From Escherichia coli (lineage in GTDB: Bacteria; Pseudomonadota; Gammaproteobacteria; Enterobacterales; Enterobacteriaceae), in NCBI RefSeq assembly GCF_003991155.1, contig NZ_CP031293.1: a DNA stretch of 64,000 bases; one strand, given 5' to 3'. The translations under genes were made by a program, and so were the position numbers. How positions within the stretch are numbered: the stretch's first letter is position 1; every line of letters begins with the position of its first letter. The notes beneath the pieces were generated by a model that saw nothing but the letters and a program-made list of their open reading frames with translations, was not told the DNA's origin and ran no database searches. This document shows, piece after piece, positions 23,962 to 57,223 of the stretch.

Positions 23962-23980
23962 AATAGGAAGGAGTGGAATA

Positions 23981-24274: not shown

Positions 24275-24289
24275 TTGTATACTACTATG

Positions 24290-28310: not shown

Positions 28311-28322
28311 CAGAGAAAATAT

Positions 28323-28880: not shown

Positions 28881-28966
28881 AATAATTGGACATATAACAA
28901 ATATATTAAATCGGTAGCATCTCCAGGGAAGGATCATCGTATTCGTATGCCGTAGGCACGCCGTAA

Positions 28967-29360
28967 TCTGGTATAACGAAGACGGCCTGCTCACCCGCAG
29001 CACCGACCCGCTCGGTCGGGAAGAGATTACGGTATGGGAGAACACGCAACTCCAGTCACGCACCGATGCACTGGGGCGTAAAACAGCGTATGAATACAAC
29101 GATGAGGGCGATATCTGGCACGTCGCCCTGCCGGGTGGTTACAGTCTGTACTATGACTACAACGACGCCGGACAGTTAACCCGCCTGACCCTGCCGGGCG
29201 ACCAGGTATGGCAGTGGGATTACGACGATAAGGGCAGCATGGTCTGCCTGACCGACCCGCAGGGCCGGAAACAGCAGTTCAGCTACTGCGCACAGGGGGA
29301 TTTACTGGCGCGGATTATGCCGGGCGGAGCCACCTGGCGCTGGAGCCATGACGCCCCAGG
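28967..29360 (+). pseudogene. Internal rhs core fragment
   Basis: Translation WYNEDGLLTRSTDPLGREEITVWENTQLQSRTDALGRKTAYEYNDEGDIWHVALPGG matches the main rhs at ~21185..21585; no start or stop context. Confidence 0.8.
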
Positions 29361-29384
29361 GAACAGGGAAAGATCACGTAACGC

Positions 29385-30658: not shown

Positions 30659-30813
30659 TTTGGGCTAACGAAATGGAAAATTTAACATAAATTTAATTCA
30701 TGCTCTTGCCCTGATTTCGGGCTGACATAATAGTGAAGATTTTAACACAAATTTAATTCATGTCCTCATCCCAGTATAGACTTTAATTTTATTTTTTTGA
30801 TAAGGTACTACAT

Positions 30814-31647: not shown

Positions 31648-31723
31648 TATTTCACATTACGTACTTTTAAAAAAGTATAATTATTAGCCGGTTAATTCAA
31701 TTATATAACACAGCCTCATTGCG

Positions 31724-31966
31724 CTAAAATAAAATTCGTATACCAAGTTTTATCAGCTTTAACTGAGTGATGATCTTTACATTATTGTTTTTTGCATCTG
31801 AGCATAAAATCATGACACTAAATATTGAAAACACAGCAGACATAAAGAAAAAAGCGGCCCCTCTTTCCAAGAGGATTCCGAGAATGAAAGCAAAAAATGC
31901 CACTGCCGGAAACCATAGCGACAAAGCGTCTTTTGCAGAGTCATATATCACATCTATTAGTGTCAA
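31724..31966 (-). CDS. Hypothetical small membrane protein
   Basis: 80 aa ORF with two predicted transmembrane helices; coding status uncertain. Confidence 0.25.
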   Translation of the reverse strand: MTLIDVIYDSAKDALSLWFPAVAFFAFILGILLERGAAFFFMSAVFSIFSVMILCSDAKNNNVKIITQLKLIKLGIRILF

Positions 31967-32169
31967 ATCTTTAGTTAAATTTGGATGAAGAGTTTTTTAA
32001 TATTTTTAAAATTATGCCTAAGACTGAATAACTCGTTATATTTAAAACCGTTAGTAATAATTTTACGCCTTACTTTTTCCAGTTTCATTTATTATCACTC
32101 CTTGAGATCTTTAAATTATTATAGTGTATTTTTTAAGTGAGTCAATGCATCAGAGAAAGATCATCAGAA

Positions 32170-33445
32170 GAACTCTTTTTGTACTAAATAATTCGCATTT
32201 TATGTTTAAAAATTGAGATATTCCTCATTGTCTGAAGCTGTTTTTTATTGCTTATACATGATCAAATACTCCTTACATAATTAAGGAGAACAAAATGGAA
32301 CTTAAAAAATTGATGGAACATATTTCTATTATTCCCGATTACAGACAAGTCTGGAAAGTGGAACATAAATTGTCTGATATTCTACTGCTGACTATTTGTG
32401 CCGTTATTTCGGGTGCAGAAGGTTGGGAAGATATAGAGGATTTTGGGGAAACACATCTCGATTTTTTAAAACAATACGGTGATTTTGAAAATGGTATTCC
32501 TGTTCACGATACCATTGCCAGAGTTGTATCCTGTATCAGTCCTGCAAAATTTCACGAGTGCTTTATTAACTGGATGCGTGACTGCCATTCTTCAGATGAT
32601 AAAGACGTCATCGTAATTGATGGAAAAACACTCTGGCATTATTATGACAAGAGTCGCCGCAAGGGAGCGATTCATGTCATTAGTGCGTTCTCAACAATGC
32701 ACAGTCTGGTCATCGGACAGATCAAGACGGATGAGAAATCCAATGAGATTACAGCTATCCCAGAACTTCTTAACATGCTGGATATTAAAGGAAAAATCAT
32801 CACAACTGATGCGATGGGTTGCCAGAAAGATATTGCAGAGAAGATACAAAACAGGGAGGTGATTATTTATTCGCTGTAAAAGGAAACCAGGGGCGGCTAA
32901 ATAAAGCCTTCGAGGAAAAATTTCCGCTGAAAGAATTAAATAATCCAGAGCATGACAGTTACGCAATGAGTGAAAAGAGTCACGGCAGAGAAGAAATCCG
33001 TCTTCACATTGTTTGCGATGTCCCTGATGAACTTATTGATTTCACGTTTGAATGGAAAGGTCTGAAGAAATTATGCGTGGCAGTCTCCTTTCGGTCAATA
33101 ATAGCAGAACAAAAGAAAGAGCCAGAAATGACGGTCAGATATTATATCAGTTCTGCTGATTTAACCGCAGAGAAGTTCGCCACAGCAATCCGAAACCACT
33201 GGCACGTGGAGAATAAGCTGCACTGGCGTCTGGACGTGGTAATGAATGAAGACGACTGCAAAATAAGAAGAGGAAACGCCGCAGAATTATTTTCAGGGAT
33301 ACGGCACATCGCTATTAATATTTTAACGAATGATAAGGTATTCAAGGCAGGGTTAAGACGTAAGATGCGAAAAGCTGCCATGGACAGAAACTATCTCGCG
33401 TCAGTCCTTGCGGGGAGCGGGCTTTCGTAATCTTTCCCTGGAGTG
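32170..33445 (+). mobile_element. ISAs1-family insertion sequence, copy 2 (transposase frameshifted)
   Basis: Same leader and ends as copy 1; direct orientation; boundaries approximate. Confidence 0.7.
32295..33430 (+). pseudogene. ISAs1-family transposase, frameshifted
   Basis: Split into ORFs 32295..32879 and 32819..33430; 1-bp deletion in an A-run near 32850 relative to copy 1 (acaaaaacagggcgg vs acaaaacagggagg). Confidence 0.8.
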
Positions 33446-35448
33446 AGTATTTTGATTTACTGAAATATCTTATTAGAAACGGATATATTGATGAAACATA
33501 TAATGACTATATAACATATTTCTATGAAAACAGTTTAAACCGGAGTGACAAAGCTTTTTTAAGAAGTATTTCCGATAAAAAAGGGAAAGATTTTTCTTAT
33601 GCTTTGAATAACCCCTCATTAATAGCAAGTCGATTACAACTTTATGATTATAGCCAGCAAGAAACGTTAAATTTTGATTTGTTGGATCACCTCTTGGATT
33701 CATTGACTCAACATACAACACAACTTAAGACATTTATATCTCAACTGAAAAAAGATAAAAATCTCCGATTTATTAAAGAGTACATGGACACTGAACGTAA
33801 TATTTCAAGGTTAATCCCTTTATTAAATCAGCAGTGGAGTGATTTTTTTCAATTGATGTTGAATGAAAAATTATATACACAACAACAAATAAAATCATAT
33901 TCCCTGGACAGTCTTTATTTTTCAAATCAAGACACTTTATTAAAAGTCAACCATAATGGCTGTCTATCACAGTATATATCTGAACATAAAACATATCTAA
34001 ATATAGAACAGCCTCAAATTCAAATGCTAATAGATAAGTTTAAATGTTTAGATATTTTATTTAAGAATTTATCATATAACAACTCAGAAGCATCTTTATT
34101 TTCAGCCGTATATAAAGAGTCACTTTATGAACTTAATTATCATAATTTAAAAGAGCTTATTTGCTATGAATACAAATGTGCAGACGAAGATAAAATCAAA
34201 CACCAAAACTTCACCATATTACTAAGCAATGCATCAACATATCTTTATAAAAAGATAGATAAAAATATCGAAAAATATATAGCTATAGTTCTCGAAAATT
34301 GTGAGAATAGTATAGCTGATGCTGAAAATGCAGTTGTTGTAATTATTAATAAATCAGGAATTGATGAGGAAATAAAAAAATCATACATAGCAAAACTCAA
34401 TAATAGATTGAGTGACTTAAGTAAAATAGATGAATCAAATATGTGGTCTTACTTATTAGACCAACGAAAAATAGAGTATACTGCTGAGAATATTATTTTT
34501 TATTTTTCTCAGCATAGTGAATTAGATGAAACAATAATTAAATTTATAGATAGCGAAAAATCTATTACACTAGACTATTATAGTGGGTTTACAGACGATA
34601 TCAAAGAGAGATTTTTCGACAAGGTCATCATTTGTGAACAAATTAGCGATAACAAATACTTCGAGATATTATCTTCATTAGACTATTGCTATGAATCATT
34701 TGATATATCCGGTTTGCAGGATGCGAAGATAAAAGTACTTATCGACACTAATATAATTCGAATGTCCATTCTGAATCTAGAGTTTCTAAGAACTACATAT
34801 CCTAATAACCTTATGCATTATATAAATAAAAATATAATCGACTATATTAAACTACAGACAGGTGAATCTGCTGTTAGTGACACAAATGAAATTTTGAACG
34901 TCTTAGAATTAGATATTGATGATTCACAAAAAGAAAAGCTATCAATGATAGTAGATACTCCAATCTCTATTCAAAATAATAAATACTCAACTCTCTTTAA
35001 GAAACACATCCTCACAAATAAATTAGATATAAATGACATCCCTTATCTCATAGAAAATTATGGCACATTAGTAGCACTTCAATCGACAATTCTAATCATT
35101 TTAAGTGGTCACGTCAATGAGGTAAAAGATCATGCTGATAAATTATCGATTAACTTGTTAGAGGTCTTAATAAAGGATGCTCATTTTATCCATGATGATA
35201 ATGTAGAATTATTTGTAAAGCAGATAACTAACATGAATAAAATACAAATCAAGAAGTTTCTAAAACTGATTAATTCTTCTGAGTTAACTATCTTATTAGA
35301 TAAAAAATTGGCATCGATAAAAATAAGCTCGTCTAATGAAAAAATACTTAAGAGTTTCATAACAAATGGATTAATAAAATCCTACAGCCAAAGTACTGAA
35401 GATCCTGAATCATACATAATAGATTTCCCTGAGGAGTTTCTTGATTAA
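33439..35448 (+). CDS. AT-rich hypothetical protein, probably 5'-truncated at the ISAs1 end
   Basis: Frame open from the IS junction (33439) to 35448 (669 codons); no in-frame ATG in the first ~110 codons; Asn/Lys/Ile/Tyr-rich; no family recognised. Confidence 0.5.
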   Translation, partial: WSEYFDLLKYLIRNGYIDETYNDYITYFYENSLNRSDKAFLRSISDKKGKDFSYALNNPSLIASRLQLYDYSQQETLNFDLLDHLLDSLTQHTTQLKTFISQLKKDKNLRFIKEYMDTERNISRLIPLLNQQWSDFFQLMLNEKLYTQQQIKSYSLDSLYFSNQDTLLKVNHNGCLSQYISEHKTYLNIEQPQIQMLIDKFKCLDILFKNLSYNNSEASLFSAVYKESLYELNYHNLKELICYEYKCADEDKIKHQNFTILLSNASTYLYKKIDKNIEKYIAIVLENCENSIADAENAVVVIINKSGIDEEIKKSYIAKLNNRLSDLSKIDESNMWSYLLDQRKIEYTAENIIFYFSQHSELDETIIKFIDSEKSITLDYYSGFTDDIKERFFDKVIICEQISDNKYFEILSSLDYCYESFDISGLQDAKIKVLIDTNIIRMSILNLEFLRTTYPNNLMHYINKNIIDYIKLQTGESAVSDTNEILNVLELDIDDSQKEKLSMIVDTPISIQNNKYSTLFKKHILTNKLDINDIPYLIENYGTLVALQSTILIILSGHVNEVKDHADKLSINLLEVLIKDAHFIHDDNVELFVKQITNMNKIQIKKFLKLINSSELTILLDKKLASIKISSSNEKILKSFITNGLIKSYSQSTEDPESYIIDFPEEFLD

Positions 35449-35493
35449 TGCTAATCTTTAACAAGATGTCATAAATACACTTCAACAAAGAAA

Positions 35494-35526
35494 AAACCAC
35501 CAGCATCTCAATTGCTGGTGGTTTTT
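35494..35526 (+). terminator. Rho-independent terminator
   Basis: AAAAAACCACCAGCA-loop-TGCTGGTGGTTTTTC hairpin with T-tract. Confidence 0.6.
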
Positions 35527-35582
35527 CTTCTCCTAATTATCAGGAATCACCTCACGTAGCGGTCGGATGCAGTAGAAAAATT

Positions 35583-35676
35583 GGTGGTCATTCTGGTGGT
35601 CTTGACAATCTCGATTTTTTGTTTTAGCTTACCAATCAGCCAGTTAATGGCTACGGCGATCCCAGTCAGAGGAGCC
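35583..35676 (+). repeat. Island-end repeat copy 1, ending in the tRNA-Asn 3'-terminal 15-mer
   Basis: ~94 bp near-identical to 48837..48930 and to the reverse complement of 63231..63325; ends CCAGTCAGAGGAGCC, matching the tRNA-Asn acceptor/T-arm 3' end. Confidence 0.8.
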
Positions 35677-35714: not shown

Positions 35715-36665
35715 CTATATCTGATAATCAATTTCCTCTTCACTGTTTTCCATCACCTGGCGCTTGATATCCTCAACTGACAGTCCTGCATTACAAAGTT
35801 CCAGAAAGCGCCAGACATAGTTACGTTGAAGTTGCCCTCGCTTCAGTCCCAACCAGACAGTATTAGCATCGAAAAGATGCCTCGTATCCAGACGGATTAA
35901 ATTCTTTTCCTCTTGTTCACCACTGGATTGTTCGGCAACTAATCCGATCCCCAGCCCAAGAGCAACATAGGTTTTAATGACATCAGAATCCTGCGCACTT
36001 AATACAATATCTGCCAGCAAACCTTTGCGGGCAAATGCGTCATCAATACGTGAGCGCCCCGTAATCCCCTGTCGGTAAGTAATTAACGGCCACTTCGCTA
36101 TTGATTCCAGCGTCAACGGTGTAATTTGCGTCAAGGGATGATCGAGTGGAACAAGCAAACTATGGTGCCAACGAAACCACGGGAAGGCGACGAGCTGCGG
36201 GTCATTACTCAAACGCTCGCTGGCGATACCAATATCAGCTTCGCCATTTTGCAACAACGTCGCAATTTCCTGTGGTGTACCCTGGATTAGCTCCAGCCGA
36301 ACCTCCGGGAAAAGTTCGCGAAAAGCTTTAATGACCTCAGGCAAGCTATAACGTGCCTGAGTATGCGTCGTTGCAATAGTGAGAACGCCAGACGTATCGT
36401 TGGTAAACAGGTCTGCAAGCCGACGAACATTACTGGCTTCATTCAGAATACGTTCTGCAATGACCAGTAATGCTTTGCCCGGTTCAGTCATGCCCAGCAG
36501 TCGCTTACCTCGTCGAACAAATATTTCGATGCCAAGTTCATCCTCCAGTTCCCGAATATGACGGCTAACGCCTGACTGTGAGGTAAAAAGCATATTCGCA
36601 ACCTCTGTCAGGTTGTAATCCTGACGTGCAGCCTCGCGGATTATCTTTAGTTGTTGGAAATTCAC
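35715..36665 (-). CDS. cbl: LysR-family regulator Cbl (CysB-like)
   Basis: 316 aa; sequence recognised as E. coli Cbl (MNFQQLKIIREAARQDYNLTEVANMLFTSQSGVSRHIRELE...). Confidence 0.9.
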   Translation of the reverse strand: MNFQQLKIIREAARQDYNLTEVANMLFTSQSGVSRHIRELEDELGIEIFVRRGKRLLGMTEPGKALLVIAERILNEASNVRRLADLFTNDTSGVLTIATTHTQARYSLPEVIKAFRELFPEVRLELIQGTPQEIATLLQNGEADIGIASERLSNDPQLVAFPWFRWHHSLLVPLDHPLTQITPLTLESIAKWPLITYRQGITGRSRIDDAFARKGLLADIVLSAQDSDVIKTYVALGLGIGLVAEQSSGEQEEKNLIRLDTRHLFDANTVWLGLKRGQLQRNYVWRFLELCNAGLSVEDIKRQVMENSEEEIDYQI

Positions 36666-36766
36666 GGTAAACTCCGGGCAGTTCAGATATCCCGTTATTG
36701 TTAAAGTCTAATGCCCGGCATAACAAATAATAAAAACCCGCATCTTATTCCATCCCGATATAACGC

Positions 36767-37684
36767 TTAGCTCACCAATTGCCACTGCCTTTTTTCCATC
36801 ACTGGAGAATTCATCACTGACATTAACAACTCTTTCACTGCTTGCGCCTGTGGTGATAAGTTCGCTCTGGCGGGTAAATTTAATGACAAAGAGAGACTCA
36901 TGGAAGGAGTGGTAATGCGTGACATCCAACCATTTACTGCGCCACATAACGAACGCGCGGCCGATTCGGGTAATACTGCAACGCCCATGCCGCTGGCAAT
37001 CGCTGCGGTAAGCGTGGCAATAGACTCAATTTCACCAATGACTTTTGCCGTGAGTCGCCGTAGGGAAAAAGCCTCATCAACACGAAGTCTAATAGCACTG
37101 TAATCACTTGGGAGAAAAAGGTTCATTTGCGCAATAGCATTAACATCAACGCTTTGCCCCGGGCAATCTTGAGTTCCTACCAGAAAAAGATCTTCTTTCA
37201 GTAAAGCCTGACTGGATACACCAGCCACAGGGGAATGCTCATAAATCACCGCCATATCGAGTTGGTGATTTATCAGTTTTTCGTTAAGTACTGCACCGCT
37301 ATTTTCATGAAGATAAATAACGACCTCCGGGAATTCAGCGCGAACCGCCTGTAATAAGGGCATGGTGATGGATGACGCAGCGGTTCCTGGCGCAAAGCCA
37401 ATCGAGACTTGCCCCGATAATGCCTGACCAACGTTATGCACCGCCAGTTGGGCCTGCTCACACTGACGTAAAATGGCCCGCGCATGGGTATAGAGAATTT
37501 TTCCGGCGTCAGTTGGCGTAACACCCCGTTTTGTGCGAATCAAAAGTTGTTGATTTAACTCACCTTCCAGTGTGGCAACCTGCTGACTGAGCGCTGGTTG
37601 TGCGATATGCAATACTTCAGCAGCCTGGGTCAGGCTACCAATATCTACAATTTTTACGAAGTATTTCAGGCGTCTGAAGTTCAT
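36767..37684 (-). CDS. nac: LysR-family nitrogen assimilation control protein Nac
   Basis: Start MNFRRLKYFVKIVDIGSLTQAAEVLHIAQPALSQQ at 37684 (305 aa); recognised as Nac. Confidence 0.9.
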   Translation of the reverse strand: MNFRRLKYFVKIVDIGSLTQAAEVLHIAQPALSQQVATLEGELNQQLLIRTKRGVTPTDAGKILYTHARAILRQCEQAQLAVHNVGQALSGQVSIGFAPGTAASSITMPLLQAVRAEFPEVVIYLHENSGAVLNEKLINHQLDMAVIYEHSPVAGVSSQALLKEDLFLVGTQDCPGQSVDVNAIAQMNLFLPSDYSAIRLRVDEAFSLRRLTAKVIGEIESIATLTAAIASGMGVAVLPESAARSLCGAVNGWMSRITTPSMSLSLSLNLPARANLSPQAQAVKELLMSVMNSPVMEKRQWQLVS

Positions 37685-37738
37685 GTTGCCTCCGGTTTTT
37701 AAGAATCGGCCCAAGTGCCGCCATTACTTACAACCAGA

Positions 37739-37887: not shown

Positions 37888-38008
37888 ATTACCAAAAAGA
37901 TTGAAAGCTCACCATTTTGTCGAAATTGGCAGCAAACAAACAAAAAAATGCATTTCACCCTTTGACATCACCATGCACTGCCATTAATATGCGCCCCGTT
38001 CACACGAT

Positions 38009-38084
38009 TCCTCTGTAGTTCAGTCGGTAGAACGGCGGACTGTTAATCCGTATGTCACTGGTTCGAGTCCAGTCAGAGGAGCCA
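38009..38084 (+). tRNA. asnV: tRNA-Asn (anticodon GTT)
   Basis: 76 nt TCCTCTGTAGTTCAGTCGGTAGAACGGCGGACTGTTAATCCGTATGTCACTGGTTCGAGTCCAGTCAGAGGAGCCA; cloverleaf consistent, anticodon GTT at 38042..38044; gene symbol inferred from position next to nac. Confidence 0.9.
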
Positions 38085-38250
38085 AATTTTAGTCTTGAGA
38101 CATCTCTATAAGTCTCAGGATAGTTAAAAAACAAGAACTTATCTTTACCCGGTTGTCTCGCAAGAGGCTGCTGGGTTTCTTGACATCCATAGTTTTTAGG
38201 GGCCTAATCAGGGGCCTCACGGTTCGGTGAGCAAACGGAGCCCCCACGCT

Positions 38251-39513
38251 ATGGCATTAACAGACACCGCTATTCGCAAGACTAAACCCTCTGACAAACC
38301 CTTCAAAATGACGGACAGTTCTGGACTGTACCTGTTGATCAAACCTAACGGCTCAAAACTCTGGTATATGAAGTACCGCATCGACGGCAAAGAGAAGAAA
38401 CTGGCCTTTGGCCCCTACCCGGAGATCTCCCTGTTGCAGGCTCGCCGCCTGCGCGAAACAGCACGCAATAACATTCATGCAGGCGTCGATCCGGCTGCGG
38501 TGAAGCAAACCGAGAAACAGAAGAGGAAAAACGGGCAGACGTTCAGCCAGATCGCCATCAACTGGCATAGCGAGCATAAACGCTGGTCTGAGCATTACGC
38601 GAAAACGGTTATGCGCAGGCTGGAAATGTACGTTTTCCCGGATATCGGGGATCGCCTTATCGAGGAGATCGAAACGGAGGATTTGTTATTCACGTTGCGC
38701 AAGGTAGAGAGTAAAGGCTTTCTGGAAATCACCGCGCGGCTGAAAAACTACGTCACCGATATCATGCACTACGCGATGAAAAAGAAACTGCTCAAAGCGA
38801 ACCCGGCGCTGTATCTGGACGGTGAGTTTGCCGCGCCAGAAACCAGTCACTACCCGGCCCTGTCGCTGGACAAATTGCCTGAGCTTTTAACCCGGACGGA
38901 TAGCTACTGCGGCAGGCTGCTGACAAAATACGCGCTTAAGCTGTCGCTGATTTTTTTTGTGCGCTCCAGCGAACTACGCTTTGCGCGCTGGAGTGAGATC
39001 GACTGGCAGCAGAAGTTATGGATAATCCCGGAAGAGCGCGAACAGATCGAAAACGTGCGCTTCTCTTACCGGGGGTCGAAAATGAAAATCCAGCACATTG
39101 TGCCGCTGTCGGATCAGGCGATTGCGATACTGAAACAGATCGAGGCCCTCTCCGGGCATCTGGCCTTTATTTTTCCCGGCGAATACGACCAGGACAAGTG
39201 CATGAGCGACAACACCGTCAACAAGGCGCTGCGCGTGATGGGTTACGACACCAAAAAGGATATCTGCGGGCATGGCTTCCGGGCAATGGCCTGTAGTGCG
39301 CTGAGCGAATCGGGATTATGGAGCAAAGAAGCCATTGAAAAGCAGATGAGCCACCAGGAAAGAAACAGCGTCCGTGCTGCCTATATTCACAAGGCTGAAT
39401 ATCTGGAGGAACGGATCGAGATGATGCAGTGGTGGTCAGATTATCTTGATGCAAACAGTGACGGGTATGTCTCGGCTTACCAGTATGCCCGCCGCCTAAA
39501 ACAGGCGTCGTAA
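38251..39513 (+). CDS. int: P4-like tyrosine integrase
   Basis: ORF 38227..39513; probable start MALTDTAIRKTKP at 38251; phage-integrase family features; lies directly 3' of the tRNA. Confidence 0.85.
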   Translation: MALTDTAIRKTKPSDKPFKMTDSSGLYLLIKPNGSKLWYMKYRIDGKEKKLAFGPYPEISLLQARRLRETARNNIHAGVDPAAVKQTEKQKRKNGQTFSQIAINWHSEHKRWSEHYAKTVMRRLEMYVFPDIGDRLIEEIETEDLLFTLRKVESKGFLEITARLKNYVTDIMHYAMKKKLLKANPALYLDGEFAAPETSHYPALSLDKLPELLTRTDSYCGRLLTKYALKLSLIFFVRSSELRFARWSEIDWQQKLWIIPEEREQIENVRFSYRGSKMKIQHIVPLSDQAIAILKQIEALSGHLAFIFPGEYDQDKCMSDNTVNKALRVMGYDTKKDICGHGFRAMACSALSESGLWSKEAIEKQMSHQERNSVRAAYIHKAEYLEERIEMMQWWSDYLDANSDGYVSAYQYARRLKQAS

Positions 39514-39636
39514 GTTAACAAAGCATCAGAGGGGGAAAAGGTATATTCCCCCTTTGTGCGTTTCAAATGTCGATGCTGACTGTAGCTTTTAAACTAAATT
39601 ACTGGATAAAAAGTAGCTTTTAAGCTACTATCTTTT

Positions 39637-39954
39637 ATGAAAACGATAAAGACCTACATAACTGCCGACGGGCGAGATCTGTATGCAGAGTTTTTTAAAG
39701 GGTTACGCGACCCCATCGCGAAGGCAAAGATCGCTTCCCGGATCAACCGGATGGCTTCGGACAATTTTGGCGACCATAAGCCCTGCCGGGAAGGTGTCTG
39801 GGAACTCAGGATAGATCAAGGGGCTGGGTATCGGGTTTATTACAGCCTGGTGGATGGAGAAGTCGTCCTGTTGATTCTGGCTGGCGACAAGCGTACGCAG
39901 GATGCAGATATAGATGAGGCTATTCGCTGCCTCAAAGACTATTTGAAGAGGTGA
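39637..39954 (+). CDS. RelE/ParE-superfamily toxin, HigB-like
   Basis: 105 aa; 3 nt before the antitoxin-like gene; toxin-first order typical of HigBA. Confidence 0.6.
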   Translation: MKTIKTYITADGRDLYAEFFKGLRDPIAKAKIASRINRMASDNFGDHKPCREGVWELRIDQGAGYRVYYSLVDGEVVLLILAGDKRTQDADIDEAIRCLKDYLKR

Positions 39955-39957
39955 TGT

Positions 39958-40266
39958 ATGGCGAAAGAACGTTTATATGATGATGTCATGGTGGAAGCGC
40001 TCCGGGAAGATCCTGCTTTTGCTCAGGCCTATCTGCATCAGGCATTTCTGGATATGGATGAAGATGGCGGTCAGGAAGCTTTTTTACTCGCGTTACGCCA
40101 TGTTGTTGAAGCGCGGGGAGGAATGGCGACGGTTGCCCAGAAAGCCGGTGTATCGCGTGAATCACTGTACCGCACGCTCTCCCCGACCGGCAACCCGACA
40201 CTGAAAACACTCCGCAGCGTCGTCCACGCCGCAGGTTTTCAGTTCTCTGCGCTGGCAAGTGCCTGA
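39958..40266 (+). CDS. HigA-like antitoxin (HTH)
   Basis: 102 aa; sequence resembles addiction-module antidote proteins (GVSRESLYRTLSPTGNPTLKTL helix-turn-helix region). Confidence 0.6.
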   Translation: MAKERLYDDVMVEALREDPAFAQAYLHQAFLDMDEDGGQEAFLLALRHVVEARGGMATVAQKAGVSRESLYRTLSPTGNPTLKTLRSVVHAAGFQFSALASA

Positions 40267-40388
40267 GTAGTTTTACATTTTGCAGCGATAATATAAATTG
40301 TAAATCATAATCCCTCCGTTGCTCTGTTCTGAGCAACGGATTACTTTGCATATTATCTGCTTTGCTAATCCATCAATTTTTAATTACC

Positions 40389-40682
40389 TTACATGGAAGC
40401 AACATACTCCATTAAATTATCTAATAAAAAATCAACCTTACTTATACCTTCATTTACATTATCGGCATAGATAAGTTCTACGAGCTTCATCCAACTTAAA
40501 TTGGAACGTACATTGTATTGTAAAAGGAGCCACTCTCTAAATCCCTCTAACATTTTACCGTCAAAGGAAAAATCCATCCCTAGTATAAAAGCCACAGTGT
40601 TTTCATAGTTATTTTCAAGTAGATACATATCGATATGCTTCTTAAAAAAAACAATTTTTTTTAGGAGGATATTTTTATTCAT
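40389..40682 (-). CDS. Putative immunity protein for orphan rhs toxin
   Basis: 97 aa, start 3 nt after the toxin stop, AT-rich. Confidence 0.5.
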   Translation of the reverse strand: MNKNILLKKIVFFKKHIDMYLLENNYENTVAFILGMDFSFDGKMLEGFREWLLLQYNVRSNLSWMKLVELIYADNVNEGISKVDFLLDNLMEYVASM

Positions 40683-40684
40683 AA

Positions 40685-41400
40685 TTAAAATCCAAAATTG
40701 ATTGCATCAGGATATTGCCATAACTCTTTATATTCTTGTAATGGTAAACCGTCTGAGCCAGTAAAGGCATCATAAACCCGACCATCTTTTACTACAACGT
40801 CGTGATATGCCCAACCGGGATTCGTGCCTCTGTATTTACCTAATGAAGGAGCTCCGAAATCAGGTCTAATTCTTGCAATATCACCACCGATTTTCTTTTG
40901 TACCCACAATGCAAAATCTTCACAACCATTCCAGTTCTCAGAATTTTTAATATCCGCAGCCTTCCATACACAATCAGCGTTAAGGCCTAATGGATCAATC
41001 CAATTTAACGGATCTTTGACGTAACTGTATGGATTAATACCTCCCAACACCCCGGTTGGATCTGCCGAAATATACTGCGCAGTATCAGGATCATAGTACC
41101 GGAACCGGTTATAGTACAGTCCTGATTCGGCATCTTCATACTGCCCCGGAAAACGCAGGCGGCAGTCAGGTGCATCATCCCTGTTCCTGCCTTCTTCCCG
41201 GCCCCAGAGCTGTTGTTTTCCCCGCCAGACAATGGTGCCGCCCTCGGTCAGCAGTTCCTGGACACGGCCGACCGTATCCGTCACCGCGTAATGCAACAAG
41301 CCTTTCTCATAACGCGCCAGCGGTGTAAAACTTCCCGGTTCGTATATCCAGCGGATGGCGTTTTCATCATCTGGCTTGCCGTCCTGGCTGACCGGAATTT
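40685..41400 (-). CDS. Orphan rhs C-terminal cassette with Cys/His/Asp-containing toxin tip
   Basis: ORF 40685..41299, rhs-core similarity extends to ~41400; DPLGL motif then a unique ~95 aa C-terminus. Confidence 0.7.
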
Positions 41401-41442
41401 CTTGGTTAGATGACCGTCAGTTAAATGGATATTATCATTCCA

Positions 41443-41784
41443 TTAAAAATCGGAATGATCCATATATTCTATATGCTCATCAGAAAGTCCATCTGGATAT
41501 AACTCTCTTGGATAATCACTATCTAAAATTGCTAGGAAGTTATTTATAGTATTTTCCAATGCCTCATCTACTGTTTTTCCCCAGCCAATAGCACCTTCGG
41601 GACAATCATCAAATTTCCGTTTAATCATTACATTTGTAATCCCCATGTAACTCCCATCCTGAGACTCTCGTATTTTTATTTTTACTTTTGCGCTAGGGAT
41701 AACACCAAACATCCAAATTACAAACTCGGCTTCAACTTTCTCTACTTTAGATACACTGCGTATTTTCATTTGATGCCAGCCCAT
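41443..41784 (-). CDS. Putative immunity protein for Rhs2 toxin
   Basis: ATG start MGWHQMKIRSV at 41784 with AGAGGA RBS, 11 nt after the Rhs2 stop. Confidence 0.5.
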   Translation of the reverse strand: MGWHQMKIRSVSKVEKVEAEFVIWMFGVIPSAKVKIKIRESQDGSYMGITNVMIKRKFDDCPEGAIGWGKTVDEALENTINNFLAILDSDYPRELYPDGLSDEHIEYMDHSDF

Positions 41785-41794
41785 ATCTTTTCCT

Positions 41795-44700
41795 CTATAA
41801 ACGACCAAAAGAGACAATTTCCCCTGTATCTACCGCAACATCAATATATCTTCCGTTCTTTCTATATCTCCACACATTTTCAGTATAACCAGAAACTTTG
41901 GTTGGTTTTATTCTTCTCAAGTTCTCAGAAAAAACCTTAGCTTTATTTAGATATTGCTCTACCGTTTCTGCACCAACTTCACGACCATGTTTTCTGAAGT
42001 GCTCCAGTAATGACTCTGCCGGAGTATCCCAACTTCCTTTACTCCATAGTTTTTTACAATTTACTTCTTGCAGGAATGCAAATAATGCCGATAAACCTAA
42101 AGGGTCAATATAACTAAATGGGTTCTGTACATATGAATATGGATTTAATCCCCCAAGTAACCCAATGGGATCTGCCGAAATATACTGCGCCGTATCAGGA
42201 TCATAGTACCTGAACCGGTTATAGTACAGTCCTGATTCCGTATCTTCGTACTGCCCCGGAAAACGCAGGCGGCAGTCAGGCGCATCATCCTTGTTTCTGC
42301 CTTCTTCCCGGCCCCAAAGTTGCTGTTTTCCCCGCCAGACAATCGTGCCGTCTTCGGTCAGCAACTCCTGGACACGACCGACCGTATCCGTCACCGCGTA
42401 ATGCAGCAAGCCTTTCTCATAACGTGCCAGCGGTGTAAAACTTCCCGGTTCATATATCCAGCGAATGGCATTTTCATATTCTGGTTTGCCATCAGTACCA
42501 ACAGGAATTTCTTCGGTTAACTGATCGCCATTCCAGTGGAAATCCATTCCGGACTTATCACGGTTGGTACACCGTTTGCTGATGCGCCTGCCAAACGGGT
42601 CGTATTTATACTCCCAGCGTTCCCCCTCCGGCGTTTCAAGCCCGGTAAGCTGACTTCTGGCATCCCAGCGATAGCGCCATTCGAGCGGACGATAGCCGCC
42701 TTTATCGACCAGTTTCTCCACCAGGCGACCATTAGCATCGTACGTCCAGGTAATATTGTGCTCATTCACCACCCGGACAAATTTTCCCTCTTCCGGCTTT
42801 CCTGTGTCCGGGTTGATGCGGTGTGTCTGATGCCGCCAGCCTTTGTGCTCTCTGGAAACAACTCTTCCATGCCGCAACTGCTGGTGTGTCTCGCTTTCCA
42901 GCACCTCATTTACCCATGTCTGGCGGCGGGCAATATTCAGGTTTTTGTCATAAGTGAACAGTTCCTCACACAGCGGAAACTCCCGGGAATCGCCCGTCCA
43001 GGTGGCATGGCTTACCTGGTCGTTAACCGTCATATTGTTGAAGGCTGATCCCCGCAGCGAGTCTGATATTACCGTCAGGTTGTACGCCTTGTCATACAGC
43101 CACTGGCGCTCCAGGCTTTTGTTCCGTTCGTACGGCCCGGCCTGGTGGTCCCCGGCATTCTGCTTCGCTGGCATCCCTGTGCGCGTGTATGCCAGCGTCT
43201 GGTAAAACCCGGCCTCGCTCCGCCTGGACGTTTCCAGGCCGCGCAGGTCGTGCTCAAATGTCAGCGGGGCATGGTCCGCTATCTGCCAGGATGCCAGATG
43301 CCCCATCAGGTTTCGGGTAAAGCGTTCTGTGATACCTGCTGTGGTGCGCTGTGTGACCGTATCCAGGTCAGGGTCGTAACGGTATTCTGTGCGCCTGCCG
43401 TTCAGCGTTTCGGCAACAATCTGGTTTGCATCGTTATATTCAAATGTAACGGTGGCATCGTCATTCTTCGCTTCCACCAGACGACGCTGCGTGTCGTAAC
43501 GAAATGTGGTGACACTCAGAGTTCGGTCACTGTTGCCCTGTGTGACTTCCTCGTCCGTCACCTGGTCATTCACGTTGTAGCGGCGGTTAAGGTGAGTGCC
43601 GTCCGGGAAGCTGGTGCGAATACAACGCCCGACGGCATCGTAGGTGTAGTTCAGCGTGCGTCCGGTGAAGTCTGTTTCTGCTACAAGCTGCCCGGCTTTA
43701 TCATATTTAAGACGGTAGCGCTCGCCTTCGGCGTTGGTAATTTCGGTCAGGCGGGTCAGTTTATCGTAGCGACACGCCAGCCGCTCGCCGTCAGGACGCA
43801 CCAGAGCCGTGAGCAGATCGAATGCACCGTATTCGTAACGGGTGGTTTTGCCCTCGCCATCGGTAAAGCTTTCCGGTAGCTTTTCGCTGTTCTGGCGCAT
43901 CAGTTCCCGCACGCCGTCCGGGCGCTGGATTTCTTCCACGCAGCCCTGTGGCCCGGCGTGGATTTTGCTGTGACGAAACTGCGTGGTGAAGCCAAGTGGG
44001 TCTTTCACACTTAACAGTCGGCCCAGCATATCCTGTTCGGTCTGCGTGATGCCGCCGTCTGGCGCAACAGTCTCGCGCACCTGATGCAGGGCGTCATGAC
44101 TCCAGCACCAGGTGGCCCCGCCCGGCAGAATCCGTGCAAGCAAATCACCCTGTTCACTGTAGCTGAACTGCTGTTTCCGGCCCTGAGGGTCGATCAGGCT
44201 GATTATGCTGCCCCGATCATCATAGACCCATTGCCACGCCTGATTATCAGTTGTCGACAGCCGGGTTAACTGACCGGTATCATTATACTCGTAGAACAGG
44301 CCATAGCCGCCCGGCAGGGCAACCTGGATAACCTCACCTTCCCGGTTATAGCGGTACGCCGTGGTACGCCCCAGCGCATCGGTGCGTGACTGAAGCCGGG
44401 CATTATTCCAGACGGTAATTTCTTCCCGCCCCAGCGGATCGATACAGCGGGTGACCAGGCCGTCCTCGTTATACCAGTAACGGGTTTCGCCCCCTTCTGC
44501 ATCCAGGTAGGTGGTGCATTTTTCATCATCGTTATAGATAAAGCGGTCATCGAAGTAGCCTTCCGTTGACAGTGTGCTGACAGCGCGCCCCTGCGGATCA
44601 TAGCGGATATCCACACAGGTTTTGTCCGTATCCCGCCAGCGGGTCATAAAGCCTTCTGATGTGTACTCATGCCATAAATGCGAGAACTGGAAGGTATCGC

Positions 44701-45985
44701 ATTCTGCCATAAAACCATTGTCATCATACTGGCAGGTCACAAGACGCTGACGCTGCGGCGTTGCCAGGTCAATGCTCATCAGCTGAGCCTGTTGCCAGGC
44801 AAGGGCGAGCATATAGCCATCGCTGTGACGGATTTCTGTCAGCAGACCATCAGTGCGGATAAAATCAATCCGGTTGCCATAATTATCGAAGACAGCGGAC
44901 AACCGCCAGACGCCATTGCCTGCCGGGGAAAAGAGCTGTGTCTGCTGCGAACGGCGATCGAAAACGCTCACGCCATCGCGCAGGCTTCCCGTCAGCCGGT
45001 AGTACGCCTGGCGTGAGTTCACTGCACCGCGAAAGATACCGTCCTGCGGCAGGCGGTAATACAGTACAACGCCTTCACTGTCGGTAAAATGCAGCCGGTT
45101 ACCCTGTATCGTCAGCGACGCTGACCACTCATCGGTCCATTTCGGGCCGAAAATCCCGGTCCCCCTGGCCTGTGAGCGGTAAAAACGCGAGAGCGTCAGC
45201 GGCAGGGAACCCGGCAGCGAAAGCACGCTGAAATGCTGGAGAAAATCGCCGGTGCCAATATCCACAGGCTCACCGGGTTTGGTGCACAACTGAGCACCAA
45301 CACATTTACTCTGATCACCAGTTCCCTCGGTTTCACCTTTAATATTTGCGCCATCCTGGCCTTCGGGTATGACATCATCCGCCAACTTTTCTGCGTCACT
45401 GACAACATCGTCTGCTTTGTTTACCTTCAGCAGATCGGCGGTGAATTTCCCCGCCGCTGCTTCTTCTCGTGCCAGTTTACTGGCAGTCCGCATCGCTCTA
45501 AGACCCACGAACCCGCCTCGGGCCAGACCATATCCTCCCAGCGCCAGCGAGCCATGGTCATAAATCATGCCGCCAATTTCCTGGTTCCTGTTGCTCATTT
45601 CCAGACGGTACATGTCCAGATTGAAATCTCCCGCATGCTCCCGGAGATCTCCGCCCATGTTGTACATATCCTCGCCAATATCATCCATGCCCATCGCAGA
45701 AAGCATGGCGCCGTTCATCTGCATTTCTCCGGCATACTGCATGGTGGCCCCCTGGCCTATCATCGTCGCCATATCCGGGAACTGGTTCCAGAATGCTTTG
45801 GCAGCACCAATAGCCAAATCAAGCTGGACTGCCGAAGCTTCAATTTTCGCCCGACTTTCATCCATCTGGATCATCAACATCATGTCCCAGATACTTTGCT
45901 CTTCTTTTGTTTCTGGCTCTGGCGCAGGGTCAGCTTCGCTGGCGGAAATAGCGGCTTCAGGGGGCTGACCGATAATTAAACCCGT
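41795..45985 (-). CDS. rhs: Rhs repeat effector 2, 5'-truncated by the IS3-family element
   Basis: ORF 41795..45883; frame stays open upstream to the IS end (~45985) and encodes ...GLIIGQPPEAAISASEADPAPEPETKEE, matching the linker after the PAAR domain of Rhs1; YD repeats; DPIGLLGGLNPYSYVQNPFSYIDPLGL then a unique C-terminus. Confidence 0.85.
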   Translation of the reverse strand, partial: TGLIIGQPPEAAISASEADPAPEPETKEEQSIWDMMLMIQMDESRAKIEASAVQLDLAIGAAKAFWNQFPDMATMIGQGATMQYAGEMQMNGAMLSAMGMDDIGEDMYNMGGDLREHAGDFNLDMYRLEMSNRNQEIGGMIYDHGSLALGGYGLARGGFVGLRAMRTASKLAREEAAAGKFTADLLKVNKADDVVSDAEKLADDVIPEGQDGANIKGETEGTGDQSKCVGAQLCTKPGEPVDIGTGDFLQHFSVLSLPGSLPLTLSRFYRSQARGTGIFGPKWTDEWSASLTIQGNRLHFTDSEGVVLYYRLPQDGIFRGAVNSRQAYYRLTGSLRDGVSVFDRRSQQTQLFSPAGNGVWRLSAVFDNYGNRIDFIRTDGLLTEIRHSDGYMLALAWQQAQLMSIDLATPQRQRLVTCQYDDNGFMAECDTFQFSHLWHEYTSEGFMTRWRDTDKTCVDIRYDPQGRAVSTLSTEGYFDDRFIYNDDEKCTTYLDAEGGETRYWYNEDGLVTRCIDPLGREEITVWNNARLQSRTDALGRTTAYRYNREGEVIQVALPGGYGLFYEYNDTGQLTRLSTTDNQAWQWVYDDRGSIISLIDPQGRKQQFSYSEQGDLLARILPGGATWCWSHDALHQVRETVAPDGGITQTEQDMLGRLLSVKDPLGFTTQFRHSKIHAGPQGCVEEIQRPDGVRELMRQNSEKLPESFTDGEGKTTRYEYGAFDLLTALVRPDGERLACRYDKLTRLTEITNAEGERYRLKYDKAGQLVAETDFTGRTLNYTYDAVGRCIRTSFPDGTHLNRRYNVNDQVTDEEVTQGNSDRTLSVTTFRYDTQRRLVEAKNDDATVTFEYNDANQIVAETLNGRRTEYRYDPDLDTVTQRTTAGITERFTRNLMGHLASWQIADHAPLTFEHDLRGLETSRRSEAGFYQTLAYTRTGMPAKQNAGDHQAGPYERNKSLERQWLYDKAYNLTVISDSLRGSAFNNMTVNDQVSHATWTGDSREFPLCEELFTYDKNLNIARRQTWVNEVLESETHQQLRHGRVVSREHKGWRHQTHRINPDTGKPEEGKFVRVVNEHNITWTYDANGRLVEKLVDKGGYRPLEWRYRWDARSQLTGLETPEGERWEYKYDPFGRRISKRCTNRDKSGMDFHWNGDQLTEEIPVGTDGKPEYENAIRWIYEPGSFTPLARYEKGLLHYAVTDTVGRVQELLTEDGTIVWRGKQQLWGREEGRNKDDAPDCRLRFPGQYEDTESGLYYNRFRYYDPDTAQYISADPIGLLGGLNPYSYVQNPFSYIDPLGLSALFAFLQEVNCKKLWSKGSWDTPAESLLEHFRKHGREVGAETVEQYLNKAKVFSENLRRIKPTKVSGYTENVWRYRKNGRYIDVAVDTGEIVSFGRL

Positions 45986-45992
45986 CGTATTA

Positions 45993-47244
<1,252 letters not shown>

Positions 47245-47493
47245 CCACTACACATAGCAAGGGGAAAAGGTGGATGGGAGCCAACTAAGTTACAAAATTT
47301 TGATCCTGAATTTGGCAGAAAACTACAAGCAATAAATAACGCGTTAAGGAATGGACGGATAGAATTTGCTCATGCACAGGTTTTTTTACGCAATGATGGC
47401 TCTGTTAATGCTGCAGTAGGCATTGGTAGCGGAATACAGTGGAATACCTGGTAATAATAGTATGTGTATATAACGAATAAAGGAGTCCATTTT

Positions 47494-48426
47494 ATGGCAG
47501 CAAGCAAAACAAAAAACAGACTGGAAAAAATGCTTCCTCGCGTTTATAGCTGGGCACAGAGCGGCAGCCAATCAGTAACCGCCCCTGAGTTTAACTATAT
47601 GGAACAATATATTAATGGTCAATCTGAACTTTTCATGGCATTAATTCATTTATATGGACTTGGCATGAGTGAAGCTGCATTAAGCTTACTGGAAGCCAAA
47701 CAGTCTATGGCTTCTTCTGTTATCCATATGAGTTATGGATTCTCTCGAATGCTTCATTCTGATGGCATTAATATATTGAGTTTAAAAGAAAGCAAGGCAA
47801 CTATTACTTCAGGCTTGGATTTCGTCACACATAGTATGCTTGGAGCAATTGCGCTGGGTATGCCCGCTCTGACGAAAAAATTTCACCAGATTGTTTTTAC
47901 TGCTCTTGAGAAAGGGTATGGCATTGTAAATGCGCATGAAGATCCTGGCCCAGAAACTTTACGCTATGCTGCTATGGGACTTTCCATCATTAATGACTGG
48001 CTACAGATCCCCCTGGATTTAGATAAGCTGGGACTGCCACGCGATCCGGCCTGGGGGCTTCTGGTCAAACACTGGAATAACCCTGATCCCGTTAAATTAC
48101 AATCGGTTCTGTATGATGCCTGTGATATCCATATAGAACGTATCGCGTTAACAGAACGTGAAGTTTATACCGGTAACTTTGAATTTGGCTCTCCGTTTGA
48201 AGCCGTTCACCCAACAGAGATTCTGGCGGTATTGCGCCTGAGAGACATGCTGAATCTGCCCAATCCGACATTAGACCATCCGCTGATGAACACACCTTAT
48301 GCCCAAATCACCACCACTCCGGGCCAGGTCACTCAGCCGGACAGTCTGCTAGAAACCTTTCTGGCTAAGGCCCGTGAACGGGATCCAGAGGTCATGGCCG
48401 AATGGGATCGGGTTCAGGTGGATTAA
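47494..48426 (+). CDS. Hypothetical protein (possible immunity or adaptor)
   Basis: ORF 47464..48426; probable start MAASKTKNRLEK at 47494 with AAAGGAG RBS; no family recognised. Confidence 0.5.
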   Translation: MAASKTKNRLEKMLPRVYSWAQSGSQSVTAPEFNYMEQYINGQSELFMALIHLYGLGMSEAALSLLEAKQSMASSVIHMSYGFSRMLHSDGINILSLKESKATITSGLDFVTHSMLGAIALGMPALTKKFHQIVFTALEKGYGIVNAHEDPGPETLRYAAMGLSIINDWLQIPLDLDKLGLPRDPAWGLLVKHWNNPDPVKLQSVLYDACDIHIERIALTEREVYTGNFEFGSPFEAVHPTEILAVLRLRDMLNLPNPTLDHPLMNTPYAQITTTPGQVTQPDSLLETFLAKARERDPEVMAEWDRVQVD

Positions 48427-48453
48427 TTTGGTACTGGATACAAAGGATAGATA

Positions 48454-48717
48454 ATGAAACCATTAATAACGCTTGGGGATAAAACATCTCATGGTGGTGT
48501 TGTAATTAGTGCCAGTGCAAATTTTTTGCATGAGGGACAGCCTGTCGCCTGTGATGGTGACCAGGTAACTTGTCCGATAGAAGGCCATGGGCCAGCAAAA
48601 ATCATAGCATCTGGACAGGGGTTTTCTATAAATGGGAAACAGGCTGCACATGATGGCGATAAAACAACCTGTGGGGCAACGCTGATAGCCAGTCATTTTA
48701 TTGTGCGTCATAAGTAA
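48454..48717 (+). CDS. Stand-alone PAAR-domain protein
   Basis: 87 aa with three PAAR-like motifs (LGDKTSHGG; CDGDQVTC; HDGDKTTCG). Confidence 0.8.
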   Translation: MKPLITLGDKTSHGGVVISASANFLHEGQPVACDGDQVTCPIEGHGPAKIIASGQGFSINGKQAAHDGDKTTCGATLIASHFIVRHK

Positions 48718-48836
48718 CTAATACCAAAATAACTCTATGATTAAAAAGGCTGATATATATGCTGGAAGTAGACAGACTACCGGAAACAGTACGACGGTGA
48801 CAGGGTGAACCAAAGGGTTAGGCGCATTTTAAAAAG

Positions 48837-48930
48837 GTGGTCATTCTGGTGGTCTTGACAAACTCGATTTTTTGTTTTAGCTTATCAATCAGCCTGTTAA
48901 AGGCTAAGGCGATCCCAGTCAGAGGAGCAA
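48837..48930 (+). repeat. Island-end repeat copy 2 with tRNA-Asn 3'-end 14-mer (probable attR of the asnV island)
   Basis: Near-identical to 35583..35676; ends CCAGTCAGAGGAGC (one mismatch to the tRNA 3' end after that). Confidence 0.8.
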
Positions 48931-49243
48931 AATTCTAAAAATTCGCTTTTTTAGCGCAATATCACTGACCTTAGTTGAGCATTGCTTTTTAATGGATAGC
49001 GGGTTTTTGACATCTTAAGCGCCCTCGACCTTTATGGTTGAGGGCGTTTTGCTATGAACGCCATCACCATTTTCCCCTCGATTATAAAACTTGAGTAATT
49101 CAGTAGTCTCCCCTCTTGCAACTCACACCCAAAACTGCTTAACGAAAAGTTATTAATTTTCAATCATATTGCTATCAGGATTTATATTTTTTCGCTGTGC
49201 TAGAAAGGGCGCATTTATGTTAGCTCGTTCAGGGAAGGTAAGC

Positions 49244-57223
<7,980 letters not shown>

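Follow-up and report, generated by a model that had tools for sequence, protein, structure and literature searches.

A 10.9-kb integrase-bearing island at tRNA-Asn in Escherichia coli, with apparently decayed type VI secretion cargo and a probably secondary left junction

Among the integrative islands that target the 3′ end of asn tRNA genes, the Yersinia high-pathogenicity island (HPI) and the pks (colibactin) island of E. coli are the closest described systems; the direct repeat of HPI measures 17 bp, and the pks island is found at asnW. Both have a P4-family integrase beside the tRNA gene and a short tRNA-derived repeat. The same anatomy was recognized in a 10.9-kb element at positions 38069..48930 of a 64,000-nucleotide stretch of Escherichia coli DNA (contig NZ_CP031293.1 of assembly GCF_003991155.1; this whole stretch is called the window hereafter). 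The window belongs to the E. coli chromosome, and in the comparison with NZ_CP048609.1 only three checked positions differed. The element differs from HPI and pks in size (10.9 kb versus 30-55 kb), in lacking an excisionase gene, and in its cargo: where HPI and pks encode siderophore or polyketide synthesis, it has what appears to be type VI secretion system (T6SS) effector debris. HPI is located at asnT (PMC10562709), and in strain Z1323HEC0477 it occupies the same mtfA-asnT-yeeJ site that is relevant here, with fyuA adjoining a decayed yeeJ.

The cargo also has described counterparts. Arrays of orphan rhs toxin/immunity genes lie downstream of main Rhs genes and are a source of replacement tips via homologous recombination (Koskiniemi et al. 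2014, PMC3967940). The island holds a fragment of this type, in which the end of an Rhs core leads into a tip of a different kind, with a small open reading frame (ORF) of low GC content next in line. It departs from those arrays in that its "main" Rhs is itself beheaded, so that both of its tips are orphans, and in that the nearest intact recipient, with 81% identity in the core region, belongs to another island and is encoded on the opposite strand. Auxiliary modules with the order VgrG-DUF4123 (Tap/TEC)-effector-immunity-PAAR form the second counterpart; their order is kept by an effector stub, a 310-aa gene and a PAAR gene of the island, which has only the module tail. The island is of a known kind, orphan rhs/immunity arrays and auxiliary VgrG modules are likewise familiar, and nothing in the locus is new in kind. 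The literature found on T6SS or Rhs islands at asn tRNA genes in E. coli concerned HPI and pks contexts only, and no paper describing the 10.9-kb island itself was found.

The evidence presented below indicates that the locus is probably a decayed integrative island belonging to a cross-genus family at tRNA-Asn, with T6SS cargo that is mostly wreckage and a left junction that is secondary. Judged by its gene content, it would be a genomic islet of an ordinary sort, in decay, and the idea of a functioning weapons depot does not fit it.

Boundaries, distribution and integration genes

The first-pass annotation, made from the letters of the window, had proposed an island bounded by the 3′ end of a tRNA-Asn gene and a direct repeat of it, with a P4-like integrase and a toxin-first toxin-antitoxin pair next to the tRNA. 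The corresponding features are the following:

38009..38084, plus strand: tRNA-Asn(GTT), called by ARAGORN and Rfam and the sole ARAGORN tRNA-Asn call; flanked 5′ by the sequence proper to asnV (nac side), with the attL core in its 3′ end.
38069..38088, plus strand: attL core, copy 1 of the direct repeat, CCAGTCAGAGGAGCCAAATT, found as a repeat match.
38251..39513, plus strand: P4-like tyrosine integrase, 420 aa, with Arm-DNA-bind_3, Phage_int_M and Phage_integrase domains; motifs R238, H341xxR344 and Y377 intact.
39637..39954, plus strand: RelE/ParE-superfamily toxin, first of its pair; TIGR02683 (upstrm_HI1419), weak Pfam Gp49.
39958..40266, plus strand: antitoxin; TIGR02684 / PF21716 (dnstrm_HI1420).
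48831..48914, plus strand: conserved right end of the island, a putative attP arm, common to two other asn islands in the window and to a Citrobacter island.
48915..48934, plus strand: attR core, copy 2 of the direct repeat, CCAGTCAGAGGAGCAAAATT, beyond which lie the native asnT 3′ flank and yeeJ.

It was observed that the 14 nt with which the tRNA ends, CCAGTCAGAGGAGC, recurred exactly at 48915..48928, where 0.01 matches were expected by chance. When one mismatch was allowed, the bounding repeat extended to 20 nt (38069..38088 versus 48915..48934). Two more exact copies of CCAGTCAGAGGAGC, which the first-pass annotation had missed, were located in the window at 35662 (plus strand) and 63233 (minus strand). 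All three copies outside the tRNA were directly preceded by a conserved block of ~100 nt, 85-95% identical between copies, and the repeats can therefore be read as the right ends (attR) of three related islands. An outward promoter was also suspected in this conserved right arm, and a consensus scan gave it no support.

The distribution of the island was assessed in 5426 complete E. coli genomes with a synthetic empty site, in which 300 nt of mtfA-asnT were joined to the 300 nt after 48930. The site mtfA-asnT-yeeJ was uninterrupted in 2675 of them, with identity up to 99.2%, and the sequence after 48930 is thus the native asnT 3′ flank. The island itself was present at a coverage of at least 80% in 32 genomes, and the interval 38000..49200 was 100% identical in more than 20 complete genomes. 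The 10.9-kb segment is a genuine integrase-bearing island at tRNA-Asn in one rare E. coli lineage. Since both its anatomy and this presence/absence polymorphism support P4-family integration into the 3′ end of an asn tRNA, the P4-like integrase would have inserted the island into asnT, in the interval from mtfA to yeeJ, and a second copy of the tRNA end would have resulted.

The description of the island as mobile was not sustained by these comparisons. The copies in all 32 carriers were 99.8-100% identical, the four genomes that were checked shared the same upstream neighbourhood, and no xis/alpA-like excisionase (recombination directionality factor) gene was annotated or recognized among the island ORFs. 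Beside these full copies, a second-lineage variant at the same site and a Citrobacter island with the same right end were seen.

The integrase showed 50.2% amino acid identity to phage P4 Int across 97% of its length (E=1e-135) and the matching domain architecture. In the adjoining pair, the toxin scored 113.4 bits against TIGR02683, whose cut-off is 62.85, and the antitoxin was likewise above the curated cut-off of TIGR02684. The pair had been called HigBA-like, a designation that holds for its layout, since the toxin comes first, belongs to the RelE/ParE superfamily, and is followed by a small protein of the DNA-binding type, as in HigBA type II systems. It does not hold for the family: a Pfam search reported no match of the toxin to the HigB family, its Pfam matches being Gp49 (E=1.9e-4) and ParE_toxin (E=0.12), and by these matches the predicted pair belongs to the HI1419/HI1420 family (TIGR02683/TIGR02684; Gp49, dnstrm_HI1420). 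Adjoining int as it does, the pair probably stabilises the island.

Remains of two T6SS modules

The rest of the island is filled with T6SS-type cargo genes and an insertion sequence (IS), found at about the places previously listed:

40389..40682, minus strand: putative immunity gene of the orphan tip, 97 aa, GC 0.30, no family match.
40685..41401, minus strand: orphan rhs-CT (C-terminal) fragment, with the end of Rhs_assc_core, DPLGL and a ~98-aa tip of a rare, unclassified type; annotated start at 41296.
41443..41784, minus strand: putative immunity gene of the main Rhs tip, 113 aa, GC 0.36, no family match.
41795..46009, minus strand: 5′-truncated Rhs, with DUF6531, YD shell, Rhs core, DPLGL and a BECR-fold RNase-like tip.
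45995..47252, plus strand: IS911-like IS3-family element, 1258 bp, with inverted repeats TGTAGTGG.../...CCACTACA and no target-site duplication.
47272..47451, plus strand: effector stub, in which 60 codons remain from the end of a T6SS effector of ~606 aa; 72% identity to residues 547-606 of its Salmonella homologue.
47494..48426, plus strand: 310-aa all-helical protein, inferred to be an orphaned immunity gene; no Pfam, NCBIfam or PDB match.
48454..48717, plus strand: stand-alone PAAR protein, 87 aa; PF05488, E=1.9e-22, model positions 1-70/70.

These genes would derive from two modules. The first, on the minus strand, would have read DUF2169 chaperone, PAAR-like (DUF4150)-Rhs, immunity, orphan rhs tip, immunity, and the second, on the plus strand, VgrG, DUF4123, 282 aa, ~606-aa effector, immunity, PAAR. 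The IS911-like element and deletions adjoining it would have taken the 5′ parts of both. Such deletions would account for an Rhs without its VgrG-loading head and for an effector reduced to 60 codons.

In the first module, the larger gene had been described as a second Rhs, a description that has to be corrected, given that the gene is not intact. Its annotated ORF spans 41795..45883 (1362 aa), and the frame runs upstream past the annotated ATG into the end of the IS, giving 1405 codons. This extended frame matched DUF6531, TIGR01643, TIGR03696 and NF041261, with DPLGL at residue 1302, and corresponded to aa 114-293 of an E. coli DUF4150 (Tox-PAAR-like) protein with 96% identity. What the island lacks is the initial 113 codons, the part of the gene that specifies the DUF4150 PAAR-like head, and no PAAR domain was found in residues 1-365 of the main Rhs. 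Strain 980-2 keeps an intact allele of 1517 aa, including the DUF4150 head. In this strain the same IS lies 416 bp further out, where it cuts a gene down to its last 62 bp; this remnant is putatively a DUF2169 gene, by analogy with Citrobacter, in which DUF2169 abuts the Rhs start. Because 980-2 has the intact gene with the same IS further out, the Rhs allele of the window would have arisen by an IS-adjacent deletion of 416 bp, and the event can be dated between sister genomes (980-2 versus the others).

The orphan rhs-CT followed by a small ORF was recovered as described. The annotated ORF comprises 203 aa (40685..41296), with Rhs_assc_core at aa 31-105, and Rhs-core homology extends to 41401; its core end (40986..41285) was 85% identical across 300 nt to the main Rhs (42096..42395). 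The tip had 10 homologues only, one of them behind a PT-HINT domain, and the 97-aa ORF begins 2 nt downstream. The tip of the main Rhs, in turn, is a common C-terminal module of polymorphic toxins, with 416 clusters at 50% identity. Its structure model (predicted local distance difference test, pLDDT, 94.7) superposed on 8ey4_A, the CdiA-CT of E. coli O32:H37, with a template-modelling (TM) score of 0.64 and a root-mean-square deviation of 2.5 A, and further fold matches were the CdiA-CT of NC101, the colicin D tRNase (TM 0.57) and then RelE/HigB. The predicted structure thus shares the BECR fold with the CdiA-CT and colicin D tRNases, but the sequence is only 11-16% identical to these structural matches and has no Pfam or PDB match. 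The main tip is probably a BECR-fold RNase, and probably a tRNase. Pfam, NCBIfam and PDB sequence searches returned nothing for either tip or for the 97-aa and 113-aa ORFs, which are putative immunity genes of the neighbouring tips.

The second module was recognized from Salmonella and Serratia, in which the order is VgrG, DUF4123, 282 aa, ~606-625-aa effector, 308-312 aa and PAAR. The island is collinear with it, with identities to the Salmonella proteins of 72% for the stub, 77% for the 310-aa protein and 92% for PAAR, and has lost VgrG, DUF4123, the 282-aa gene and ~90% of the effector. The stand-alone PAAR gene had been noted from the outset; the effector stub at 47272..47451 and the putative immunity role of the 310-aa ORF had escaped attention. 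The 310-aa family has 175 detectable members, with several paralogues per contig in Pseudomonas and Serratia. In a second E. coli lineage (GCA_033744675.1), three tandem 310-aa paralogues precede PAAR-attR-yeeJ. This tandem paralogy and the position after the effector suggest that the 310-aa ORF is an immunity gene orphaned by the truncation of its effector. No Pfam match was obtained for any of 50 checked members of the family, nor did Pfam, NCBIfam and PDB sequence searches return anything for the 310-aa protein or the Salmonella 606-aa effector. The structure model of the 310-aa protein was all-helical (pLDDT 86), and a fold search with it yielded no credible PDB neighbour. The UniRef label "Immunity protein 49", carried by one homologue, was rejected as having no Pfam backing. 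The 282-aa, 606-aa and 310-aa members of this Salmonella/Serratia/E. coli module thus stand without a family or structure assignment. The 310-aa family and its ~606-aa partner constitute a candidate undescribed T6SS immunity/effector pair, widespread across Pseudomonas, Burkholderia, Pectobacterium, Serratia and Salmonella, and the 310-aa members often occur as tandem paralogues.

The IS3-family element, whose transposase matched NF033516 (E=2e-78) with a programmed frameshift annotated by RefSeq, sits between the two beheaded genes, the Rhs on its left and the effector stub on its right. It is 100% identical to a copy in a third, inverted island, whose right end lies in the window. No target duplication was present, the flanks being ATG on the left and CAT on the right, which is consistent with deletions adjoining the IS. 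The 4-nt flanks (45991..45994 and 47253..47256) are mutual reverse complements, TATG / CATA, and do not form a direct duplication. The left ATG also borders the third-island IS copy on its right side, and pairing IS flanks was tried as a way of rebuilding the history of the locus. This was abandoned, because the sequences next to the shared ATG (codon 114 of Rhs and codon ~111 of DUF2169) do not adjoin each other. Both the complementary flanks and the shared ATG were taken as chance, though they could record an IS-mediated inversion or exchange. In addition, a 145-bit Rfam match to isrC, an Hfq-binding small RNA, at 46063..46185 falls wholly within the 5′ end of the IS, so that the "sRNA" family is here part of an insertion sequence.

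The two IS copies have apparently had a further effect. Five genomes (PK12 type) lack everything from 47253 through yeeJ..yeeN into the third island, ~19.8 kb that include the 310-aa gene, PAAR, yeeJ, a GT9 gene, shiA, amn, yeeN and part of the third island. By its end points, this loss is a recombination between the two identical IS copies, which would have removed yeeJ..yeeN in some strains.

Regarding function, the claim of a depot of accessory effectors was borne out in so far as T6SS-type cargo genes are present, and it was likewise correct that the island lies apart from the T6SS core, which is in another island (window ~1..35675). The designation overstates function, because no VgrG, adaptor or chaperone (DUF2169/Eag) was found within 38085..48914. 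As encoded, the cargo apparently cannot be fired, since the Rhs is without head and chaperone and just 60 codons are left of the second effector. Among what survives, three candidate immunity genes, PAAR and two toxin tips, one of them BECR RNase-like, still look intact. At most, they might provide protection against kin firing the cognate toxins, or spare tips for the intact Rhs of the T6SS island, and tip supply by recombination would follow the orphan-Rhs model (PMC3967940).

An unlikely alternative is that of a working mobile depot, in which the 1362-aa Rhs and the orphan tip are deliverable, the stand-alone PAAR loads them on a VgrG and the island moves between strains. The Rhs shell, core, DPLGL and toxin tip are indeed intact, as are PAAR and the int motifs, and 28 of the 32 carrier genomes have, at a distance of ~20 kb, a complete T6SS that includes VgrG and DUF2169; three genomes, however, have the island without that T6SS. 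Moreover, the Rhs has lost the DUF4150 head present in the intact allele, the island's own DUF2169 and VgrG genes are gone, and PAAR comes from a different module, whose effector has shrunk to 60 codons. Movement between strains is also at variance with near-identical copies, the shared neighbourhood of the four genomes checked and the missing excisionase gene.

A decaying islet is the better description, and it bears on how such loci are read. In RefSeq, the 1362-aa Rhs is entered like any other RHS protein and the 310-aa gene carries the label hypothetical; label-based effector inventories would count the beheaded toxin as a weapon and miss the orphan immunity gene. The locus would record the decay of a T6SS arsenal in one place, in which immunity genes and PAAR outlived the effectors.

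The left junction and the position of cbl and nac

The present tRNA-Asn had been regarded as the left bound at which the island integrated, a view that was not upheld. On its 5′ side the tRNA at 38009 is flanked by asnV-type (nac-side) sequence, but the sequence to the right of the island belongs to asnT. Between the T6SS island and the 10.9-kb island lie cbl and nac (35715..37714) together with one asn gene, and in genomes with the K-12 order these genes are found between asnU and asnV. The repeat at 35662 is followed by the asnU 3′ flank, and that at 48915 by the asnT flank. The locus is, from these flanks, a hybrid, and the present left junction (nac-asn-int) would be secondary and not the original integration junction.

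Three sister genomes (CS6L, TL20 and CRECJHTL34) show the likely earlier arrangement: the identical island, with its own attL and attR, is placed as mtfA-asnT-island-yeeJ, and the T6SS island is missing. In CS6L the wider region keeps the K-12 order (asnW, yeeO, asnU, cbl, nac, asnV, ldtA), also without the T6SS island. In the lineage of the window, yeeO-asn-ldtA are fused, with the 5′ spacing of asnU (160 bp) and the 3′ spacing of asnV (55 bp), which is exactly what a deletion between asnU and asnV predicts.

The two asn-int modules provide homology for such events. The segment from the tRNA to the 5′ part of the toxin gene (37985..39806, 1822 nt) is 98.2% identical to the int module of the T6SS island, and the two modules are identical across 37985..38870 (886 nt). 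The int alleles differ at 32 nt; beyond the identical stretch, 28 int differences are packed in ~200 nt (38871..39076) and are sparse afterwards, and int of strain 980-2 has a separate patch of 16 differences at 38110..38695. The alleles are thus mosaic, which suggests gene conversion between island copies.

A route in two steps may be proposed from these end states. The T6SS island would first have sat at asnU; recombination between asnU and asnV would then have excised a block of ~48 kb (asn, T6SS island, attR, cbl, nac), which would have recombined homologously with the asnT-int module of the resident island across the 886-bp identical stretch. Excision followed by homologous recombination is the most likely relocation route, its direction and mechanism being read from the end states. 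Two other routes were discarded. Capture between tandem islands without cbl-nac between them had no direct support, because a synthetic junction of the end of the first island with the start of the second was found in 0 genomes, and a route through four inversions to the present gene order was rejected, since it needs four events where two suffice.

Independent integration, whereby cbl-nac-asn would have been relocated beside yeeJ in an island-free ancestor and both islands would then have entered separate asn genes, appears quite unlikely. Both elements do have complete attL/attR-like ends, and int alleles 32 nt apart could mean separate arrivals. However, the island-free hybrid site nac-asn-yeeJ was found in 0 of the 5426 genomes, in sister genomes that share the upstream neighbourhood the identical island occupies a normal asnT while cbl-nac keep their K-12 place, and a remnant of a T6SS-type island occurs at asnU in another strain.

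Very unlikely is a single composite element of ~59 kb, running from the upstream tRNA-Asn, beyond the edge of the window, to the attR at 48915 and including the T6SS and cbl-nac, of which the 10.9 kb would be the right part. The two islands and cbl-nac do travel together at constant spacing in 28 genomes, and the outer ends would be a valid attL and attR, but three genomes have the 10.9-kb unit by itself, complete with an attL and an attR, and cbl and nac are core genes with native flanks. Finally, that there is no island at all, and that the repeat within core sequence is due to chance or to faulty assembly, is refuted despite the short exact core (14 nt), given the chance expectation of 0.01, the same sequence at 100% identity in at least 24 independent complete assemblies and the precise empty site in 2675 genomes.

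Some observations nevertheless weigh against the reading of a decayed island with a secondary left junction. The truncated Rhs retains an in-frame ATG, a complete shell and the toxin, so that a non-canonical use is possible, and the immunity roles were assigned from position, size, low GC and tandem paralogy, with no family match behind them. Both the order and the mechanism of the cbl-nac relocation were deduced from end states, the crossover cannot be placed, as both modules are identical where it would lie, and relocation in the reverse direction, or import via recombination from a donor, would be further routes to the same arrangement.

If the excision and re-insertion route is correct, the locus would be a clean example of core genes, cbl and nac, relocated via recombination among four asn-tRNA loci occupied by related islands. 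A wider proposal is tentative, its chances falling somewhat short of even: that paralogous asn-tRNA/integrase modules serve as portable homology, by which the T6SS island picked up cbl, nac and a tRNA gene and re-inserted elsewhere as a ~48-kb block, and that the 310-aa and ~606-aa proteins are an undescribed immunity/effector pair. Were it true, island families at multi-copy tRNA genes would reshuffle core gene order as well as add cargo.

Related asn-tRNA islands and neighbouring genes

The T6SS island, integrated at the mtfA-proximal tRNA-Asn, measures ~45.7 kb; it takes up window positions 1..35675 and extends ~10 kb beyond the upstream edge of the window, and it ends at the attR at 35662. 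It carries tssA-M, tagH, vasI/L, two hcp, vgrG, DUF2169, a PAAR-like Rhs (19543..23961, the 81%-identical gene mentioned above), orphan rhs tips with immunity genes, and ISAs1. The same toxin gene as in the 10.9-kb island lies next to its int, where it is cut by another IS copy. Its tssBC genes were detected in 28 of the 5426 genomes, all 100% identical. Just inside its right end, downstream of two ISAs1, a hypothetical ORF of 554 aa was noted at 33784..35448, within a region whose GC content is very low (0.26-0.28).

The third island is inverted, with its attR at 63224..63331 (minus strand), and is integrated at asnW, outside the window. It contains radical SAM and DUF6375 genes, a gene for a 1352-aa hypothetical protein, rhs fragments, a DUF2169 fragment and a pseudogenised int (74% nucleotide identity). 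Outside E. coli, an island of 12.5 kb occupies mtfA-asn in Citrobacter sp. wls706, with an int of 70% nucleotide identity, a DUF2169-ToxPAAR-like Rhs arrangement and a right end of 92% identity. Because related islands occur in the window, and the Citrobacter island has a related int, Rhs module and right end, the 10.9-kb island can be assigned by sequence comparison to a cross-genus family of asn-tRNA islands carrying Rhs modules. In strain Z1323HEC0477, which has the K-12 gene order, asnU holds a stub of a T6SS-type island, composed of a truncated int of 98% identity, a truncated ISAs1 and the ~100-nt right end. With HPI at its asnT, this strain illustrates how members of the island family can be spread, one here and another there, over the asn loci of a single genome.

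The native 3′ flank of asnW (63150..63232, minus strand) resembles the first ~70-90 nt of the island left end, with 90% identity across 71 nt, a likeness seen even in a genome with an empty asnW. This flank appears to be the fossil attL arm of an older island, fixed in E. coli. On the other side of the 10.9-kb island, the yeeJ-like gene, which encodes an Ig-domain adhesin of 2684 aa, is intact and contains three tandem repeats of 609 nt at 52260..53777, 64-79% identical to one another, and the GT9 (yeeL) gene beside yeeJ is intact as well.

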